The notes: a model not told the origin generated them from the letters alone. A stretch of DNA of 64,000 bases from Candidatus Helarchaeota archaeon (GCA_019058315.1 JAHPZH010000001.1:32001-96000); one strand, 5' to 3'; counted from the first letter of the stretch, positions 3-20,592 are shown. Translations and numbers: made by a program.

Positions 3-3000
3 TTTGAAGCAGAAATGACCAATAGAACTGCAATTTATATCCCCTTTCCCCAAGCAGTTCCCCGAAAAGCAGTTATTGATACTGAAAATTGCCTATATTT
101 TCAAAAAGGCATTTGTAAAGCATGCGAAAAATTTTGTCAAGCAGGAGCTATAGACTTCGAACAAAAAGATGAAGAAATTGAAGTCGAAGTCGCTTCAATA
201 GTTGTTGCTACAGGATTTGATTTAATTGATCCTTCTACAGTATCTGCTCGATTTGGTTATAAAAAATATCCCAATGTGGTGACTAGCCTTCAATATGAGC
301 GGATTCTGAGTGCCTCAGGACCTTATGGTGGAGAAGTATTGCGTCCTTCTGATAAAAAACATCCGCATAAAATAGCATTTATGTTATGTGTGGGCAGTCG
401 TAACACAGATAAGAAAGCCAAGTCTTATTGTAGTAAATTCTGTTGCATGTATAGTTGTAAGGATTCAATTATCACTAAGGAACATGCACCAGATGTAGAT
501 GTGACAATTTTTTATAATGACTTGAGAACTATTGGAAAAGGCCATGAGGAATTTTTTGTAAGAGCTGAAAATGAGTATGGTATTAATTTCATTAATGGTT
601 TACCTGCTTATATTGAAGAAGATCCTTTAACAAATGATCTGATTGTTCAATATGAAAATATCAAAGAGGGAACCATTCAAACTGAAACGTTCAATATGAT
701 TATTCTAGCACCAGCTGTAATTCCAAGAAGTGATTCAACTGAATTAGGGAAAATTTTAGGCATTAAAGTTGATGAAAACGGTTTTTTCGAGCCTACTAAT
801 TCAGCCAATATTCTTGAATCATCTGTTGAAGGAATATATCTTGTCGGATCTTGTCAGAGTCCAGAAGATATCTCACATTCGGTTGCAAAAGCATGTGGTG
901 CTTCGGCTCTAGCGGGTTCACGAGGTCGTCCTGATTTTGAAGTTGGAAAGAAGCTAGAAGTTCCAGAAAGGATAGTTTTACCCACTGATCCCCCAAGGAT
1001 AGGTGTATTTATCTGTCATTGTGGAATAAATATTGGTGGGGTTGTTGATGTCCCAAAAGTGGTAGAATATGTAAAAACACTCCCCAATGTTGTTTATGCT
1101 ACTGAAAATCTCTATACCTGTTCTGAAGATTCTCAAGTTCTTATAAAAGAGGCAATTGAAAAAAATGACCTTAATCGAGTAATCGTAGCAGCATGTACAC
1201 CAAGAACTCATGAGCCATTATTTAGGGAAACAATCAAAGAGGTTGGCTTAAATCCATATCTATTTACATTTGCAAGTATACGAGAACTTGTTTCTTGGGT
1301 TCATATGAAAGAACCTGAAGCCGCTACTGATAAAGCTAAAGATATGGTAAGAATGGCGATTTCACGATCAAGGTATTTAGAACCTCAAACTACAATTGAA
1401 GCTGATGTGAGACAATCTGTTCTAGTCATAGGAGGCGGAATCGCAGGGTTAAGTGCAGCTAATGCAATAGGAATTAGGGGCTATCGTGTGCATCTGATCG
1501 AACAAAAAGATCATTTAGGAGGTCTATTAACCGAACTTGATTCGATCAATTTTGAACGAATTAATGCTAAGGATTTTATCAACCAAGTAATCGAAAATGT
1601 AAAAGCTAATGCCCAAATAAAAATCTACACCAATACCATTATTAAAGACATTCATGGTTCAATTGGAGATTTTAATGTTGACCTTAATATTAATGGAGAA
1701 ATAAAAAACGTTAAAGTTGGGGCTATAATTGTAGCAGCAGGATCTGACCTATCTAAAGATGGTATATTTGGTTATGGAACTCATCCAAATATTTACACTC
1801 AACTTGAATTCATTAAGAAATTCGAAAATAAGGAATTTAAAGATGGTGAAAATTTCGCATTTATTCAGTGTGCAGGACAACGAGATCCAGAAGGATTGAC
1901 CTATTGTTCGAACATTTGTTGTGAAGTTGCAATAAAAAGTTCGATGCAGATTAAAGAAATCTATCCTAATTCTAATGTGTGTATCTTATATCGTGATATA
2001 CGAGTAGAACCTGAAGGGGAAGAATATTATCGAAAATCAAGAGAAAATACAGCTTATTTAAAATACGTAGAAAAACCAAGAGTTTCAGTTGGTTCTGATA
2101 ATAAAATTATGATTCAGGTCAAGAATGTATTGACTGGTTCAGATATAGAATTGCCTGTTGATCATTTAATTCTTGCAACTCCAATGATAGCTTATCCAGA
2201 TAATAAAAAACTTTCCGAATTTTTGAAAGTTCCTCTAGGACCGATGGGATTCTTCTTGGAAGCTCATCCAAAGCTAAGACCCGTCGATTTTGCTACAGAT
2301 GGAATTTTTGTTTGTGGTGCAGCTCAAAGTCCTAAAAATGTAGCTGATTCCATAAGTCAAGCATTAGGTGCTGCTTCTAGAGCGTTGCGATTCATTGAAA
2401 GAGGAAAGGTTGAGAGTGAAGCCATCACGGCGTGGGTGGACCCAAATCTATGTATAAGTTGCGGAATGTGTCAACATATTTGTCCATATGGTGCAATTGG
2501 AATTAGAGTTGAGGAAGGTAAAATAGTTTCCGAAGTAAATCAATTATTGTGTAAAGGTTGTGGAACATGTAGTGTTGTATGCCCTGCCCAAGCCATTACA
2601 ATGCGCCATTATGGTATGGAACCCATATTAGATATGGTTCATGAAGCAGTAGCGATACAACCACCTGAAGATGAACCAAGAGTTGTAGCTTTCTTGTGTA
2701 ATTGGTGTTGTTACGCCGGCGCAGATAATGCGGGTGTTAGTCGATTTCAATATCCACCTAATATCAGAGTGATAAGATTAATGTGTAGTGGTCGTGTTGA
2801 TCCACTATTTGTTCTCGAAGCATTTGCAAGTGGCGCAGATGGTGTATTCATCGGAGGATGCCACATAGGAGATTGTCACTATATTTCGGGCAACGAAAAG
2901 GCATATCGGAGAGTCATAAAGCTTAAAAAAACATTAGAAGAGGTGGGCATCGATCCTGCAAGATTTAAGTTAGAATGGGTATCGGCTAGTGAAGGCAAGA

Positions 3001-3089
3001 TTTTCCAAAAAGTAATAACTGAATTTGTTCAAGAGTTGAAAAAATTAGGTCCTAGTAAATTAAGACCAAAAATACTTGGAGGTAATTAA
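3..3089 (+). CDS. hdrA: Large HdrA-like FAD/4Fe-4S flavoprotein (duplicated HdrA modules) with C-terminal MvhD domain fused; 5'-partial
   Basis: Frame is open from the window edge. RIGVFICHCG, VIVAACTPRTHE, VIGGGIAG FAD motif, ferredoxin CxxCxxC motifs, and C-terminal FLCNWCCYAGAD...CSGRV...GCHIGDCHY (MvhD). Confidence 0.9.
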   Translation, partial: FEAEMTNRTAIYIPFPQAVPRKAVIDTENCLYFQKGICKACEKFCQAGAIDFEQKDEEIEVEVASIVVATGFDLIDPSTVSARFGYKKYPNVVTSLQYERILSASGPYGGEVLRPSDKKHPHKIAFMLCVGSRNTDKKAKSYCSKFCCMYSCKDSIITKEHAPDVDVTIFYNDLRTIGKGHEEFFVRAENEYGINFINGLPAYIEEDPLTNDLIVQYENIKEGTIQTETFNMIILAPAVIPRSDSTELGKILGIKVDENGFFEPTNSANILESSVEGIYLVGSCQSPEDISHSVAKACGASALAGSRGRPDFEVGKKLEVPERIVLPTDPPRIGVFICHCGINIGGVVDVPKVVEYVKTLPNVVYATENLYTCSEDSQVLIKEAIEKNDLNRVIVAACTPRTHEPLFRETIKEVGLNPYLFTFASIRELVSWVHMKEPEAATDKAKDMVRMAISRSRYLEPQTTIEADVRQSVLVIGGGIAGLSAANAIGIRGYRVHLIEQKDHLGGLLTELDSINFERINAKDFINQVIENVKANAQIKIYTNTIIKDIHGSIGDFNVDLNINGEIKNVKVGAIIVAAGSDLSKDGIFGYGTHPNIYTQLEFIKKFENKEFKDGENFAFIQCAGQRDPEGLTYCSNICCEVAIKSSMQIKEIYPNSNVCILYRDIRVEPEGEEYYRKSRENTAYLKYVEKPRVSVGSDNKIMIQVKNVLTGSDIELPVDHLILATPMIAYPDNKKLSEFLKVPLGPMGFFLEAHPKLRPVDFATDGIFVCGAAQSPKNVADSISQALGAASRALRFIERGKVESEAITAWVDPNLCISCGMCQHICPYGAIGIRVEEGKIVSEVNQLLCKGCGTCSVVCPAQAITMRHYGMEPILDMVHEAVAIQPPEDEPRVVAFLCNWCCYAGADNAGVSRFQYPPNIRVIRLMCSGRVDPLFVLEAFASGADGVFIGGCHIGDCHYISGNEKAYRRVIKLKKTLEEVGIDPARFKLEWVSASEGKIFQKVITEFVQELKKLGPSKLRPKILGGN

Positions 3090-8738: not shown

Positions 8739-9410
8739 ATGAGTTTTGATCTTGAACAATTAATTTCTGAAGATGTTGACGTAAAAAATGAAATGCATAA
8801 TATTTTCAAGCAGCTAGAAGATGGTTTTCAAGATATACTAAAAAATACTGAAAAATTCGAAGGTCCCTATAATAAAATTATTGAAAATTTAAAAGATTAT
8901 GCGAGAGTAACTACAACGACTGGCAACCAAGAGGATTCGCCATTCTTTGATGTGGCAAAAAAATATGAGGGACTTCTTGATGGTCATAAAGAATATATTC
9001 ATGATGTAACTGATGATGTAATTTTAGTATTGCAGCAATTGATAGGAAAATCCAAATTATTGGATGAAGCAATCAAGGAATTAAGTTCCGCTGCAAAAGA
9101 TGCTAGAAAATTAAAAAATAAACTTGAAAAAATCGATGAAGATATTTCAAACGCGCAAGCTCAAGGTAAATCTGATAAAGCAACAAAAAAACTAGCTGAA
9201 AAAGAAACGAAAACTGCAGAATTTAACTCTGCAAAAGATAAACTAGCAAGCATTTTGGAACGATTTAATGTTAAAATAGATGATTTTAATTCGGAACGAG
9301 ACGAATTAATGAAGAAATCATTAGGTGATTTAATCGCTTCAGAAAAGAAATTAATAGAAGCAATGCAATCAGTGCATGATGAGCTTGATAAAGCAGCGGG
9401 AAGCCTTTAA
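8739..9410 (+). CDS. BAR-domain-like all-helical protein, paralogue 3
   Basis: GGTGA upstream; same motif series (EDVDVKNE, LEDG, LKDYA, SPFF, KKYE, DDV, GKSDK, DFNSERD). Confidence 0.7.
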   Translation: MSFDLEQLISEDVDVKNEMHNIFKQLEDGFQDILKNTEKFEGPYNKIIENLKDYARVTTTTGNQEDSPFFDVAKKYEGLLDGHKEYIHDVTDDVILVLQQLIGKSKLLDEAIKELSSAAKDARKLKNKLEKIDEDISNAQAQGKSDKATKKLAEKETKTAEFNSAKDKLASILERFNVKIDDFNSERDELMKKSLGDLIASEKKLIEAMQSVHDELDKAAGSL

Positions 9411-9519
9411 AACTTTTTATTTTTTTTATTCTAATCTATTTTTCCCTTTAACTGATATTTTCTATAATTCTTATTATCTTTTTTTTATTAAAATTAGAAA
9501 TTACCCGTTGCATCGGGGA

Positions 9520-9555
9520 GTCATTTCATAACACAAGTTTATTTATGAAATTCAT
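9520..9555 (-). promoter_or_regulatory. Putative eukaryote-type SECIS element overlapping the hdrA stop codon
   Basis: Minus-strand RNA AUGA-AUUUCAUAAAU-AAA-CUUGUG-UUAUGAAAU-GA-C: AUGA/GA core, perfect 9-bp stem (AUUUCAUAA/UUAUGAAAU), AAA 11 nt after AUGA; lies directly after a gene with two Cys-position TGAs. Confidence 0.75.
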
Positions 9556-11531
9556 TCTCTTTTTATTGAGATTTCTGTCTCTTCGGCGAAAAGATTGTCG
9601 ATATACGACTCAAATTGTGTATTTCCATATGCTTTAAGGGTCATAGCGTTATTCTTACATATAGCTGCACATGCTCCACAACCACGACAGAACATTTCAT
9701 TTACCTTTATTTTATTATTTTCCAATGATATTGCTTGGTAAGGACAAATAATCACGCATTGTCCACATCTGCTGCATATTTCATCATCTACTTTTGCGCG
9801 TATTAATTCCATTTCATAGACTCCTGTTGTCATCGGAATTGCAGCCGAAGCAGCAGCTCCTTTTCCTTGATTAACAGTTGCATCAACCGCTTTGGGACCT
9901 TGAGCAACACCTGCGACATAAATTCCGGGTATTTTAGTCCTTACTGGATCTAATCGTTGGTGAAATTCTTTTATAAATCCATCAGGGCTTTTTTCCAATC
10001 GTAATTGTTCTGCTATCTTCTCTGTGCCTTCAGAAGGTTCCATAGCAACTGAAAGAACTACCAATTCTGCTTCCAACTTTTTGATCTCTCCATTAAGAGT
10101 ATCTTCAACGCGTAAAATTACATTTTTTGTTTCCGGATCCTCCTTAACCTCTGCAATATTTCCACGGAGAAATTTAATCCCTAATTCTCGCATACGTTTG
10201 TAATATTCTTCGTATGCTTTTCCAGGTGTCCTAATATCCATGTAACAAATTGTAATATCCGTATCTGGGTTTTCATTTTTTAATAGACCAGCATTTTTAA
10301 TAGCTACAAGACAGCAAACTCCAGCACTGCAATATTCATTAGTTTCAACGCTTCTTGAACCAACACATTGTATCATGACTACTTTACTAGGGAATTTATC
10401 ATCAGAAATTCTCCTAAATTCACCAAAAGTAGGTCCATTTGGGCTTAAAAGACGTTCCAATTGCAACTGGGTTATAACATTTTCGTACTTACCAAAACCA
10501 AATGCACCTGCTGGATCAAAAGTTTTGAACCCACTTGCTACAATTATAGTTCCTACGTTAATTGTCAATTCTTCAGGTTGTTGATCGAAATCAATTGCTT
10601 CTTCCTCGCATTCCCGAACACATAATCGGCATTTAATACACTTATCTTCATCTATTGTGTATTTTAATGGGACAGCTTGCGGAAATAACGTGTATATAGC
10701 TCTTCTGGTGTTATACCCGAAATTAAATTCGTTAGGTACTTGAATCGGACATACTTCGTCACAGGCCCCACAACCTGTACATTTATCTTCATTCACAAAT
10801 CTCGGTTTTTTCAAGATTTTCACTTGAAAATTACCGATATATCCCTGTATTTCCTTTATTTCACTGTATGTAATTAATTCAATATTAGGGTGGCTACCAG
10901 TTTCAAGCATTAGCGGTCCAAGAATTCAGATACAACATTCGTCTGTGGGGAAAATTCGATCGAACATTGCAGTATGTCCACCAATCGTGGTAGATTTTTC
11001 CACTAAGTACACTTTAAATCCTTGATCTGCGAGACTTAGGGCGCTAGTCATCCCAGCAATACCACCGCCAACAACTAATACTTTAGGATCTATATCAACC
11101 CGTTTAATCGGAATCAATTCCAGGAGCGCAGCTTTATGAACTGCTGCTCTTAGCAAATCCTTTGCCATATTAGTCGCTATCTTTGGTTCATTACGATGAA
11201 CATATGAATCATGCTCTCGAATATTTACGAACTCAAGCATACTGGGGTCTAATCCGTTATCTTTTAGAACCCTTCGGAAAACTCTTTGGTGTGTCTGAGG
11301 AGTGCAAGCAGCAACTAATATACGATTCAACCCAAATTCCTTGATCTTTTCCGCAATTAAGGCAGCACCAGCTTCGGTACACATGGAAATATATTCCTCA
11401 GAAACTGATACTAATGGTAGTGATTTTGCGTATTTGACGACTTCTGGGACATTAATAATATCGGCAATATTTTTACCTCAGCGACAAACAAAAACTCCAA
11501 TGCGAATAGTATCTTCAGTCAACGCTCTCAT
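9552..11531 (-). CDS. hdrA: Heterodisulfide reductase subunit A, selenoprotein with two in-frame TGA (Sec) codons at 11478-11480 and 10926-10928
   Basis: One 660-codon frame from ATG 11531 (or TTG 11522): RIGVFVCR-TGA-GKNIA ... RIFPTDECCI-TGA-ILGPLM. Both TGAs align to Cys in the paralogue at 18173 (IGVYICECGINIA; FPTLDCSACILTPKM). Joins track ORFs 10926-11384 and 9552-10910. Confidence 0.9.
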
Positions 11532-11946
11532 CACCACCTCCATTATTTTTTTTAAGTGGATTTGGTCCTAATTTTTTAATATTTTCTGTAAATTCTTGAA
11601 CAGTATGTGAAAATTTAGATCCTTCACTTGCAGAAACCCATTCAAGTCGAAGTCGTTCTGCACCAAGACCTAGATTTTCAAGTACATTTTTTAAACTTGA
11701 CATACGCTTTTCAGCAGCTAGATTCCCAGAGATGTAATGACAATCGCCAGGATGACAGCCCCCAACTAATACTCCATCAACTCCATTTTCAAAAGCTTTC
11801 AAAATGAAGACTGGATCTACCCTACCAGAACACATAACTCGGATAACACGTATAGTAGGTGGGTACTGAAATCTGCTGACTCCAGCTAGGTCTGCCCCAG
11901 CATAGCTGCACCAATTACATAGGAATGCTAATATTTTTGGGAACAA
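11515..11946 (-). CDS. mvhD: MvhD/FlxD-type 2Fe-2S subunit
   Basis: FLCNWCSYAGADLAG, MCSGRVDP, GCHPGDCHY, WVSASEG. Confidence 0.93.
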   Translation of the reverse strand: MFPKILAFLCNWCSYAGADLAGVSRFQYPPTIRVIRVMCSGRVDPVFILKAFENGVDGVLVGGCHPGDCHYISGNLAAEKRMSSLKNVLENLGLGAERLRLEWVSASEGSKFSHTVQEFTENIKKLGPNPLKKNNGGGDESVD

Positions 11947-18151: not shown

Positions 18152-18172
18152 TCAAAAAAGGAGAAAGATTTA

Positions 18173-20143
18173 ATGAAAATTGGCGTATATATTTGCGAAT
18201 GTGGAATAAATATTGCTTCTATGGTTGATGTAGAAAAGGTTATGGAATTTGCAAAAGAACTCCCAAATGTTGTGGTATCACGTTGGTATAAATTTATGTG
18301 TAGTGATCCAGGTCAGGACTTAATTCGACAAGATATTGACGAATTAGGATTAGATAGAGTTATTGTTGCTGCTTGTTCACCTAGGATGCATGAACCAACA
18401 TTTCGAGAATTAGTAGAAAAATGTGGTGTGAATCCTTATTGTTTTGAGATGGTAAATATTCGAGAACAAAATTCTTGGGTTCACACAGATAAGGTACAGG
18501 CAACAAAAAAAGCTATGACATTGATAGCAGGCTCTGTAAGTCGTGCAGCATTATTAGAACCGCTTGTTAGAAGTAGAGTGGGAGTTACTCATGAAGCTAT
18601 GGTGATTGGTGGCGGTGTAGCTGGAATTCAAGCTGCATTGGATATTGCTAATAATGGTTATAAAGTTTATTTAGTTGAAAAATCTCCCACTATCGGAGGA
18701 AGAATGGCTCAACTTGATAAGACTTTTCCAACATTAGATTGTTCTGCTTGTATTCTAACTCCAAAAATGTCTAATGTGGGTAGAAATCCGAATATAGAAT
18801 TGCTTACCAATACCGAAGTTGTAAAAGTAGACGGATATGTTGGTAATTTCAAGATTACTATTCGTAAGAATGCTACTTGTGTCATTCCTGATAAATGCAA
18901 TGCCTGTGGTGATTGTGCTGACATTTGTCCTGTAATTGTACCCAATGAATTTGACGTTGGTTTGAGTCCAAGAAAAGCTATATATATTGCTTTTCCTCAA
19001 GCAGTTCCAAATAAATATTTAATTGACCAAAATGCCTGTATTAAATGTGGACTATGTGTCAAATCATGTGAAGCAGAAGCGATCGACCTCAATTTAGAAA
19101 CTGTTGAAGAAACTCTTGAAGTTGGTACAATCGTAATGGCATCTGGTTATGATGTGTTCCAAGCAGAAATAATTGAACCTTATGGATTTGGAAAATATGA
19201 TAATGTTATTAATGGACTTCAAATGGAACGTCTTTTCAGTTCATTTGGACCCACCTTAGGAAAAGTTGTCAAGATATCAAATCCTCATGAGGCACCAGAA
19301 AAAGTTGCATTTATTCATTGTGTTGGGAGTAGAAATTTACAAGAAGGGGCTAAAGAATACTGTTCAAGAGTATGTTGTATGTATTTAATCAAACAAGCAT
19401 TACTGTATAAGGAAAAACACCCAGAAGCAGAAGTCTATCTTTTCTATATGGACATTAGAGCATTTGGAAAGGGATTTGAAGAATTCTATAATAGAGTTCA
19501 ATTACATTCTGGAGTAACATTTGTGAGGGGTCGAGTTGCAGAAATTTATGAAAAAGAAGATAAAACATTAACTATTCGAGCAGAAGATACATTTCTAAGA
19601 CGCCCCGTTGAATTAGACTTTGATATGGTAGTTCTAGGTGTAGGACTAGTTGCCAAGGAAGATTTAACCGAATTAGCAAGATTATTCAACTTATCGCGCA
19701 GTCCTGACGGATTCTTACTGGAAGCACATCCAAAATTACGTCCTAACGACACTTTTACAGATGGGGTCTTTTTGGCAGGTTGTGTTCAAGGTCCAAAAGA
19801 CATTCCTGACACTGTTGCACAAGCTTCTGGTTCCGCAGCAAAGGCATGTGAAATCTTATCAAAAGATGAACTACTCATTGAACCAATCACTTCAATAGTT
19901 AATGAAGATAAATGCCGAGGCTGTGGAATGTGTGTAGAAGTATGTCCTTATACTGCCATTGAGTTAAAAGTTGTAAATAAATTTGGACATCTAGTAACTG
20001 TAGCTTCTGTTAACGAAGCATTGTGTAAAGGTTGTGGATCTTGTAATGCTGCTTGTTTGTCAGGTGCTATTGAACAAAGACATTTTAAAGATAATCAAAT
20101 TCTAGCAATCATTGAAACATTTACTAAGGGTGTTGTAAAATGA
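18173..20143 (+). CDS. hdrA: Heterodisulfide reductase subunit A (Cys-containing)
   Basis: KIGVYICECG, AACSPRMHE, GGGVAG, DKTFPTLDCSACIL, YCSRVCCM, EAHPKLRP. Confidence 0.96.
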   Translation: MKIGVYICECGINIASMVDVEKVMEFAKELPNVVVSRWYKFMCSDPGQDLIRQDIDELGLDRVIVAACSPRMHEPTFRELVEKCGVNPYCFEMVNIREQNSWVHTDKVQATKKAMTLIAGSVSRAALLEPLVRSRVGVTHEAMVIGGGVAGIQAALDIANNGYKVYLVEKSPTIGGRMAQLDKTFPTLDCSACILTPKMSNVGRNPNIELLTNTEVVKVDGYVGNFKITIRKNATCVIPDKCNACGDCADICPVIVPNEFDVGLSPRKAIYIAFPQAVPNKYLIDQNACIKCGLCVKSCEAEAIDLNLETVEETLEVGTIVMASGYDVFQAEIIEPYGFGKYDNVINGLQMERLFSSFGPTLGKVVKISNPHEAPEKVAFIHCVGSRNLQEGAKEYCSRVCCMYLIKQALLYKEKHPEAEVYLFYMDIRAFGKGFEEFYNRVQLHSGVTFVRGRVAEIYEKEDKTLTIRAEDTFLRRPVELDFDMVVLGVGLVAKEDLTELARLFNLSRSPDGFLLEAHPKLRPNDTFTDGVFLAGCVQGPKDIPDTVAQASGSAAKACEILSKDELLIEPITSIVNEDKCRGCGMCVEVCPYTAIELKVVNKFGHLVTVASVNEALCKGCGSCNAACLSGAIEQRHFKDNQILAIIETFTKGVVK

Positions 20144-20592
20144 GTAAGAAAGAAATAGATAAGGATTGGGAACCTAATATTGTTGCTTTTTTATGTAATT
20201 GGTGCTCCTACGCTGGTGCAGACCTAGCAGGAACAAGTAGGGTTAAGTATCCAGCAAATATCAAAATAATCCGAGTAATGTGTTCAAGCCGAATAAATCC
20301 AATGTTCGTTATCAATGCACTCCAACAGGGAGCTGACGGAGTATTAATCTCTGGTTGCCATATTGGAGATTGTCATTATATTTACGGAAATTATTATACA
20401 AGAAGAAGATTTGCTATTTTAAAAGAATTATTAGAATATGTGGGGATAGATCCCAGACGATTTCGCCTATCTTGGGTCTCTGCATCAGAAGGAGTAAGAT
20501 GGGGAGAAGTTGTTTCTGAGGTTGTGAATGAAATTAAAAAAATTGGCCCAATTAAAAAGTTCCAGAGAAAATTGGAGGCAGTACAAAAATGA
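20140..20592 (+). CDS. mvhD: MvhD/FlxD-type 2Fe-2S subunit
   Basis: FLCNWCSYAGADLAG, GCHIGDCHY, WVSASEG. Confidence 0.93.
   Translation: MSKKEIDKDWEPNIVAFLCNWCSYAGADLAGTSRVKYPANIKIIRVMCSSRINPMFVINALQQGADGVLISGCHIGDCHYIYGNYYTRRRFAILKELLEYVGIDPRRFRLSWVSASEGVRWGEVVSEVVNEIKKIGPIKKFQRKLEAVQK

Follow-up and report, generated by a model that had tools for sequence, protein, structure and literature searches.

Background

The closest described systems are the SECIS elements of Lokiarchaeota. As defined by Mariotti 2016 (PMC4989117), a lokiSECIS is located right where the selenoprotein gene ends and consists of AUGA, a 9-bp stem, an 11-nt loop and GA after the stem, and the first five bases of the loop are mostly A while its last base is G. 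An overlap between stop codon and SECIS was described in the same paper for VhuU.1, together with an argument from structural constraint and minimal distance, and according to Huang 2024 (PMC11227280) SECIS elements and stop codons "often overlap". A lower stem is mentioned in the main texts of both papers, which mention no second hairpin, outer helix or junction.

Here we analyzed a window of 64,000 nucleotides (64 kb; positions without a contig name are counted from its first base) that contains a selenoprotein gene, hdrA, on the minus strand. The initial annotation of this window had proposed that the UGA stop codon of hdrA is part of the AUGA core of a SECIS-like hairpin. We put the probability at roughly 85% that the element at 9521-9555 (minus strand) is a functional Lokiarchaeia-type type I SECIS with a K-turn-style core, located at the 3' end of the mvhD-hdrA message.

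Source genome and Sec machinery

The window belongs to a 5.8-Mb assembly with 30% GC, a Helarchaeales-like Asgard MAG from a sediment metagenome. The closest public relative of its hdrA showed 65% identity, shared the order mvhD-hdrA and was found in a MAG labelled Candidatus Helarchaeota. Since the initial annotation had named a missing Sec machinery as the first ground for giving up the SECIS reading, the genes for this machinery were searched for in the genome, and tRNA-Sec, EFSec, SepSecS, a Sec-containing SelD and a PSTK-like gene were all found. The tRNA-Sec is located at C5:127141-127232 and is adjoined by the genes for EFSec (profile match of 287 bits) and SepSecS (482 bits), so that the three lie side by side in a Sec gene cluster at C5:124363-128115. 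The selD gene has an in-frame UGA. The PSTK-like gene scored 170 bits, which is below the curated cut-off of 290, and the presence of a PSTK gene in the genome is therefore probable and not certain. An AIR-synthase/SelD-like ORF with weak similarity to SelD (46 bits) was also observed after the Sec cluster on C5.

The hdrA gene and its neighbors

When UGA is read as Sec, the hdrA gene (heterodisulfide reductase subunit A-like, 9552-11543, minus strand) forms a single frame of 663 codons plus the stop codon. As a practical point, gene callers break up this frame into three ORFs. The gene may instead start at the AUG at 11531, which is located after a Shine-Dalgarno-like GGAGGUG. The product matched the NCBIfam models HdrA2 and HdrA with 790 bits and 652 bits, respectively, and Fer4 (ferredoxin) and FAD domains were identified by Pfam. 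The first of the two in-frame UGA codons is codon 22 (VCR-U-GKN; 11478-11480, minus strand), 1925 nt upstream of the SECIS, which is aligned with a Cys of the Cys-only paralogue and is retained as UGA in most orthologues. The second is codon 206 (FPTDECCI-U-ILGP; 10926-10928, minus strand), 1373 nt upstream of the SECIS, where the paralogue likewise has Cys. The position of codon 206 is the canonical Sec site of HdrA, and Lokiarchaeota are known to have extra Sec sites near the N-terminus of this protein (Mariotti 2016, PMC4989117). RNA contigs from a wetland metatranscriptome spanned parts of hdrA, and not the SECIS, at 90-97% identity.

Directly upstream of hdrA is an mvhD/vhuD-type gene (11515-11946, minus strand; Pfam FlpD, E = 5.8e-58) with Cys at all sites. 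The gene order is thus mvhD then hdrA, while in the HdrA2 fusion and in the Loki pairs the MvhD part comes after HdrA. Elsewhere in the window, at approximately 3-3086 and 18164-20592 (both plus strand), hdrA and mvhD form two further pairs, which are Cys-only and follow the canonical order; both carry Cys at the two sites and have no SECIS. The stop codons in these pairs were UGA for hdrA2, UGA for mvhD2 and UAA for mvhD1. As Cys-type genes end in UGA, this codon is an ordinary stop for non-selenoprotein genes in the genome.

Layout of the SECIS element at the hdrA stop codon

The 3' end of hdrA on the minus strand reads ...AGA GAA UGA, with the stop UGA at 9554-9552. This UGA is contained in the AUGA of the SECIS core (9552-9555). 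The helix P2 and its apical loop follow at 9523-9551 and were identified by base pairing, fold and covariation; the 5' strand AUUUCAUAA (9551-9543) and the 3' strand UUAUGAAAU (9531-9523) form nine of nine Watson-Crick pairs and enclose the 11-nt loop AUAAACUUGUG (9542-9532). The loop starts with AUAAA (4 of 5 bases A), has U as its penultimate base and ends in G, and its AAA starts 11 nt past AUGA. The 3' half of the core is the GA at 9521-9522, a column that was invariant or nearly so in the alignment of related elements; paired with the GA of AUGA, it would give tandem sheared G.A pairs. A lower stem is located below the core. Its 5' strand GAG (9557-9559) together with the adjoining A at 9556 was assigned by sequence reading and covariation, and its 3' strand CUC (9518-9520) by covariation and covariance-model alignment. 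The A at 9556 and the AU of AUGA make up a 3-nt bulge, as in the standard K-turn layout. A second predicted hairpin (P3, CCCG-AUGCAA-CGGG) is found at 9504-9517, 3 nt past GA and on the non-bulged strand. A candidate outer helix (P1) was obtained by constrained folding, in which AUUUCU (9496-9501) pairs with AGAAAU (9571-9576) inside the ORF. The last three bases of the P2 5' strand (9543-9545) are an in-frame UAA three codons past the UGA stop.

The initial annotation had reported the hdrA stop within AUGA, a perfect 9-bp stem, AAA exactly 11 nt after AUGA, the small hairpin that follows, and a read-through product with only U-I-S before UAA, and all of these sequence details were correct. 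Both P2 and P3 were present in the minimum free energy (MFE) structure given by RNAfold, with a modest z-score of -2.0, so that fold stability by itself was insufficient as a case for the element.

Membership in the Asgard SECIS family

A strict pattern, consisting of AUGA, 9 bp with at most one mismatch, a loop of 11 nt that starts A-rich and ends in G, and GA, had 6 matches in the 5.8-Mb genome and 0 matches in each of 5 Markov-1 simulated genomes. Five of the 6 matches were located directly 3' of ORFs with in-frame UGA. A loose AUGA-hairpin scan (331 matches) and a three-helix descriptor (640 matches vs 380 in the reversed genome) were useless without loop constraints and were discarded.

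A covariance model (R1) was constructed from an alignment (A2) of 28 elements, drawn from hdrA/vhuD loci in 40 relatives and, within the genome of the window, from six further genes; the hdrA element of the window was left out. R1 matched the hdrA element with 44.9 bits, corresponding to E = 2.7e-7 for the 64-kb window and E = 2.4e-5 for the whole genome. No other match below E = 0.5 was found across the window. The view of the initial annotation that the hairpin is a eukaryote-like SECIS of the Asgard kind was supported by this model made from other Asgard elements. In alignment A2, 85% of the cells were paired vs 47% in shuffles, and none of 500 shuffles reached as high a value. All nine P2 pairs varied on both sides among the 28 related elements, in which the columns of AUGA, AAA and GA were invariant or nearly invariant. 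In the 3-bp lower stem, the two inner positions were paired in 26/28 and 21/28 elements, with several pair types. Lack of conservation in orthologues and equal presence in Cys-only copies had also been named beforehand as grounds against the SECIS reading; the stem changes in orthologues were compensatory, and the two Cys-only hdrA-mvhD copies of the window are without the element.

At least 7 further ORFs of the genome that contain UGA were found to have the same type of element on their 3' side. The whole-genome R1 search scored 150 first-look candidates, and the elements that lie outside the R1 matches, namely the UUGA-core element of vhuD, the element at C3:494722 and the type II element of selD, were identified by eye and by script.

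None of the Rfam SECIS models matched at gathering score in the 64-kb window, and no Rfam SECIS family was found up to E = 10 in the region 9350-9650. SECISearch3 likewise fails on Asgard elements (Huang 2024, PMC11227280). The failure of the Rfam SECIS models indicates that the hdrA element is a member of the Asgard family that only resembles the eukaryotic SECIS. When the 3' region was read by eye (9411-9551), no GAA_A motif was seen, and no other candidate SECIS was found in this 140-nt region or elsewhere in the window. Judged from its sequence and that of its relatives, the hairpin is a genuine Lokiarchaeia-type, eukaryote-like SECIS, which fits the lokiSECIS definition point by point.

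Other SECIS elements and selenoprotein genes in the genome

A second hdrA with 2 Sec codons is located on C5 (plus strand; UAA stop at 665707) and is followed by a vhuD with two in-frame UGA codons, and one SECIS is common to both genes. This SECIS lies approximately 450 nt past the hdrA stop and has a UUGA core instead of AUGA, together with the same 9-bp/11-nt geometry, a second hairpin and an outer helix. A further hdrA paralogue on C11 (388537-389439, minus strand) has three in-frame UGA codons and a UAA stop. The three-helix element 3' of it has no AUGA...GA core; it has a 10-bp stem, a 13-nt A-rich loop, a second hairpin with the loop AAUGCAA and an outer helix of the ACCC/GGGU type. In the SECIS at C3:494722 (minus strand), the stem has 10 bp and the loop 12 nt, and the outer helix (GAAUUAUUU/AAAUAAUUC) has 9 bp.

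SECIS elements at C10:42157 (minus strand), C3:786881 (plus strand), C5:241411 (plus strand) and C2:186037 (minus strand) follow ORFs with in-frame UGA. One of these four ORFs encodes a small membrane protein (U-P-L-C) and has a tandem UGA UGA at its end, 12-15 nt before AUGA. The other three encode paralogous small proteins with Sec in a G-U-G-like motif, and their stop, UAA or UAG, precedes AUGA by 15-18 nt.

A small protein ending in ...PDAGC-U-U (tandem UGA) and a conserved tail of approximately 34 residues, here called the "GC-UU" protein, is encoded at C2:355651-356070 (minus strand; L046:1540-1959). Of 41 related genomes searched, 37 had homologues, and both UGA codons were kept in 43 of 44 matches. 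Neither Mariotti 2016 (PMC4989117) nor Huang 2024 (PMC11227280) names the GC-UU protein in its main text as an Asgard selenoprotein family.

Recurrence of the stop codon overlap

The initial annotation had suggested checking whether the overlap of stop codon and SECIS recurs, and it was found to recur in other hdrA genes and in vhuD, and in the GC-UU family as well. In the approximately 40 elements examined, the stop was a UGA inside AUGA in 12 (hdrA, vhuD and the GC-UU protein); each UGA stop was inside AUGA, and the remaining stops were all UAA or UAG, although such counts overstate the statistical support because elements from related genomes are not independent. Among the hdrA and vhuD elements, 8 of 28 stops were in AUGA and the other 20 were UAA or UAG. 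For five of the class's 22 vhuD genes the stop codon is the UGA within AUGA, and the UAA or UAG stops of the remaining vhuD genes ranged from 5 nt after the first base of AUGA to 20 nt before it. For the GC-UU family, twelve loci were examined (L133-L144), of which 4 stop in AUGA and the others in UAA or UAG. UGA makes up 16% of long-ORF stops genome-wide and is used freely in the Cys-type hdrA2 and mvhD2, and therefore UGA stops of the selenoprotein genes appear to be restricted to the SECIS core. Since a stop at the AUGA offset must be UGA by construction, part of this association is trivial.

In the order-level relatives (G000-G005, where G000 is the genome of the window), hdrA is the terminal gene and the SECIS is located at or beside its stop codon. 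The stop is a UGA inside AUGA in G000, in G001, where another stop follows three codons later, and in G004, where no in-frame stop follows for at least 27 codons. In G002 it is a UAG directly before AUGA, and in G005 and G003 it is a UAA 12 nt and 11 nt before AUGA, respectively. The arrangement in the class-level relatives is hdrA with a UAA or UAG stop, then a Sec-containing vhuD and then a single SECIS, which lies 440-525 nt beyond the hdrA stop.

Proposed function of the element and of the overlap

Since the family is associated with selenoprotein genes, we infer that the folded element would recruit the archaeal EFSec-Sec-tRNA(Sec) complex, either directly or via a K-turn-binding protein. 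Ribosomes would then read the hdrA UGA codons located 1373 and 1925 nt upstream as Sec. Once the final UGA entered the A site, the G and A of the sheared pairs would occupy the decoding centre, with all 9 nt of the helix's 5' strand inside the mRNA channel. This geometry follows from the known footprint of the ribosome. With the core UGA in the A site the SECIS could not exist, so that a release factor would terminate translation there. It is plausible, as the initial annotation had proposed and as Mariotti 2016 (PMC4989117) had argued for VhuU.1, that the terminal UGA escapes recoding by lying in the SECIS, and this fits the stop-codon statistics. The overlap would then be a compact and tolerated arrangement, in which one of the three frames of AUGA gives a recoding-safe stop. 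Such a device is apparently not required, since close orthologues stop with UAA or UAG 3-12 nt before AUGA.

The overlap might also be an adaptive or regulatory device, in which terminating ribosomes unfold the junction and thereby couple Sec decoding to ribosome traffic or secure termination. The recurrence of the overlap in three gene families and several genera, the lack of any UGA stop outside AUGA in the hdrA, vhuD and GC-UU genes, and the position of the 5' strands of the lower stem and the outer helix, which are also within the ORF, are in favor of such a role. However, the closest orthologues manage without the overlap, the UGA at this offset is given by construction, and an ORF that drifted into a SECIS in that frame would stop there with no need for selection. 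We consider an adaptive role unlikely, with perhaps one chance in a handful of being correct.

That Sec is inserted at the UGA of AUGA itself often enough to be useful, so that HdrA would gain the tail U-I-S, is very improbable. A UAA is present three codons past the stop, and the corresponding stop in G001 is at the same distance; yet the tail is not conserved, as orthologues have UAA or UAG at the equivalent place and the G004 gene runs on past its AUGA stop, and the SECIS would be unfolded while its own core was in the A site, given the ribosome footprint. The UAA at 9543-9545 was also considered as a designed fail-safe behind the UGA stop. As the G004 orthologue lacks such a backup, this was rejected, and the presence of the UAA is probably fortuitous; the same orthologue suggests that termination at its AUGA is reliable and efficient.

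Least probable of all is that the hairpin pair is a mere 3'-end structure, a stabiliser or terminator resembling a SECIS while something else directs recoding, for which the end of the transcription unit with U-rich sequence downstream of the element, the modest fold stability and the lack of an Rfam SECIS match could be cited, but a terminator needs no invariant AUGA, AAA and GA and no fixed 9-bp/11-nt geometry, the element stands after UGA-containing genes and not after their Cys paralogues, and the 140-nt 3' region and the window hold no other candidate that could direct recoding.

With the hdrA element taken as a functional SECIS, the UGA stop of mvhD (11515-11517) deserves attention. It precedes the first Sec codon of hdrA by 37 nt, lies approximately 1960 nt from the SECIS, and its read-through would add 15 residues, U-RYYSHWSFCLSLR, after ...ESVD before a UAA is reached. 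The equivalent stop in G001 is UAG. As the mvhD UGA lies at a distance at which the SECIS should be active, distance alone fails to explain which UGA codons terminate, and the published reasoning would leave this UGA open to recoding. Read-through may be tolerated, codon context may matter, or mvhD and hdrA may be on separate transcripts and not co-transcribed. A UGA stop that is 37 nt from a Sec codon, and probably on the same mRNA, is a natural counter-case.

Three-helix context of Asgard SECIS elements

The context of the core was compared across loci L010-L038 and L039-L044, and corresponds to 9496-9576 (minus strand) in the window. All 17 sequence clusters had a hairpin 0-4 nt after GA, and its stem sequences were unrelated. 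The mean z-score of this hairpin P3 in the 17 clusters was -1.63 vs 0.02 at a control position 40 nt downstream, and its loop held GC, mostly GCA, in 31 of 34 elements. When the 3' flanks were aligned with MAFFT, the second hairpin was placed in two registers.

In most elements, the bases just 5' of AUGA pair with the bases just 3' of P3 and form the outer helix P1. Examples are UCCGAC/GUCGGA, UCCGAU/AUCGGA, AGGUCG/CGACCU and ACUGGAA/UUCCAGU, and further ones are UUAAAGUU/AACUUUAA and GAAUUAUUU/AAAUAAUUC. By constrained MFE folding the junction topology was obtained in 13 of 17 clusters vs 46% of controls with shuffled 5' flanks. As this test is non-discriminating in AU-rich DNA, a flank-swap test was relied on instead, in which the true P1 pairs gave -8.66 kcal/mol vs -5.23 kcal/mol for swapped pairs, and none of 20000 permutations reached the observed mean. 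P1 is weak and ambiguous in the hdrA element itself, where AGAAAU/AUUUCU gave -5.4 kcal/mol (rank 7 of 17) and the free MFE structure used an alternative register.

These comparisons make it conceivable, and we offer it tentatively, that the Asgard SECIS is a conserved three-helix junction of approximately 70-80 nt, in which P3 perhaps docks an archaeal SECIS-binding factor and which the terminating ribosome would unfold as a whole, so separating the stop UGA from the Sec UGA codons. The conserved three-helix context may aid the construction of working reporters and the search for a SECIS-binding factor.

Comparison with known systems

The locus is a clean example of an Asgard SECIS, from a lineage (Helarchaeales-like) and a gene arrangement that differ from those first described. 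The locus also lends support to the published rule, by which a UGA beside or inside the SECIS terminates while distant UGA codons are recoded. Because the overlap of stop and SECIS was already described by Mariotti 2016 and Huang 2024, it is a new example and not a new principle. The more original parts are the three-helix context, the permuted operon with an upstream cistron that ends in UGA, and the rule that UGA stops occur only in AUGA.

With the lokiSECIS (PMC4989117), which corresponds to the type I eSECIS-like element of Huang 2024 (PMC11227280), the hdrA element shares AUGA, the 9-bp stem, the 11-nt loop and GA, in place of which members of the family rarely have AA, and also its place at the gene end, from where one element would serve several UGA codons up to approximately 2 kb away. 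The 3-bp lower stem agrees with the form G[A/U]G_C[U/A]C given by Huang 2024 (PMC11227280). The locus differs in that hdrA comes last and has both the SECIS and a UGA stop of its own; as described in the main text of Mariotti 2016 (PMC4989117), hdrA is always upstream of vhuD and stops with UAA or UAG, whereas here mvhD comes first and then hdrA. Furthermore, mvhD is all-Cys here and ends in UGA, and the penultimate base of the loop is U where it is usually A.

The sequence around the core fits a K-turn (PMC4005666), with the C stem GAG/CUC, a 3-nt bulge AAU and tandem G.A/A.G pairs, and the two inner pairs of the C stem covary. A k-junction (PMC10573300) is similar in topology only, in that an extra helix, P3, is located on the non-bulged strand; it differs in the 2-3-bp stem that lies between the G.A pairs and the branch point.

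The likeness to the eukaryotic type I SECIS (RF00031) consists in the K-turn-like non-Watson-Crick quartet AUGA...GA, the unpaired apical A residues approximately 11 nt after AUGA, the location in the 3' UTR and the proposed action at a distance. The upper helix of the hdrA element has 9 bp, the Asgard stem being the shorter one according to Mariotti 2016 (PMC4989117), and in contrast to the eukaryotic SECIS the element is without a long helix I and begins inside the ORF. The main text of Mariotti 2016 (PMC4989117) reports that no SBP2 was found. The SECIS of Euryarchaeota (Methanococcales) is likewise archaeal, located in the 3' UTR near the stop codon and accompanied by machinery of the same type (EFSec, PSTK and SepSecS), but it has a GAA_A loop with GC clamps where the hdrA element has an AUGA_GA core. 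A lokiarchaeal SECIS was not functional in Methanococcus maripaludis (PMC11881835), which counts against the proposed function of the hdrA element. The bacterial SECIS, which binds SelB, is also a hairpin directly after a UGA in or at the end of an ORF. However, proximity makes the UGA a Sec codon there, whereas at the hdrA locus the adjacent UGA would terminate translation and the distant ones would be recoded.
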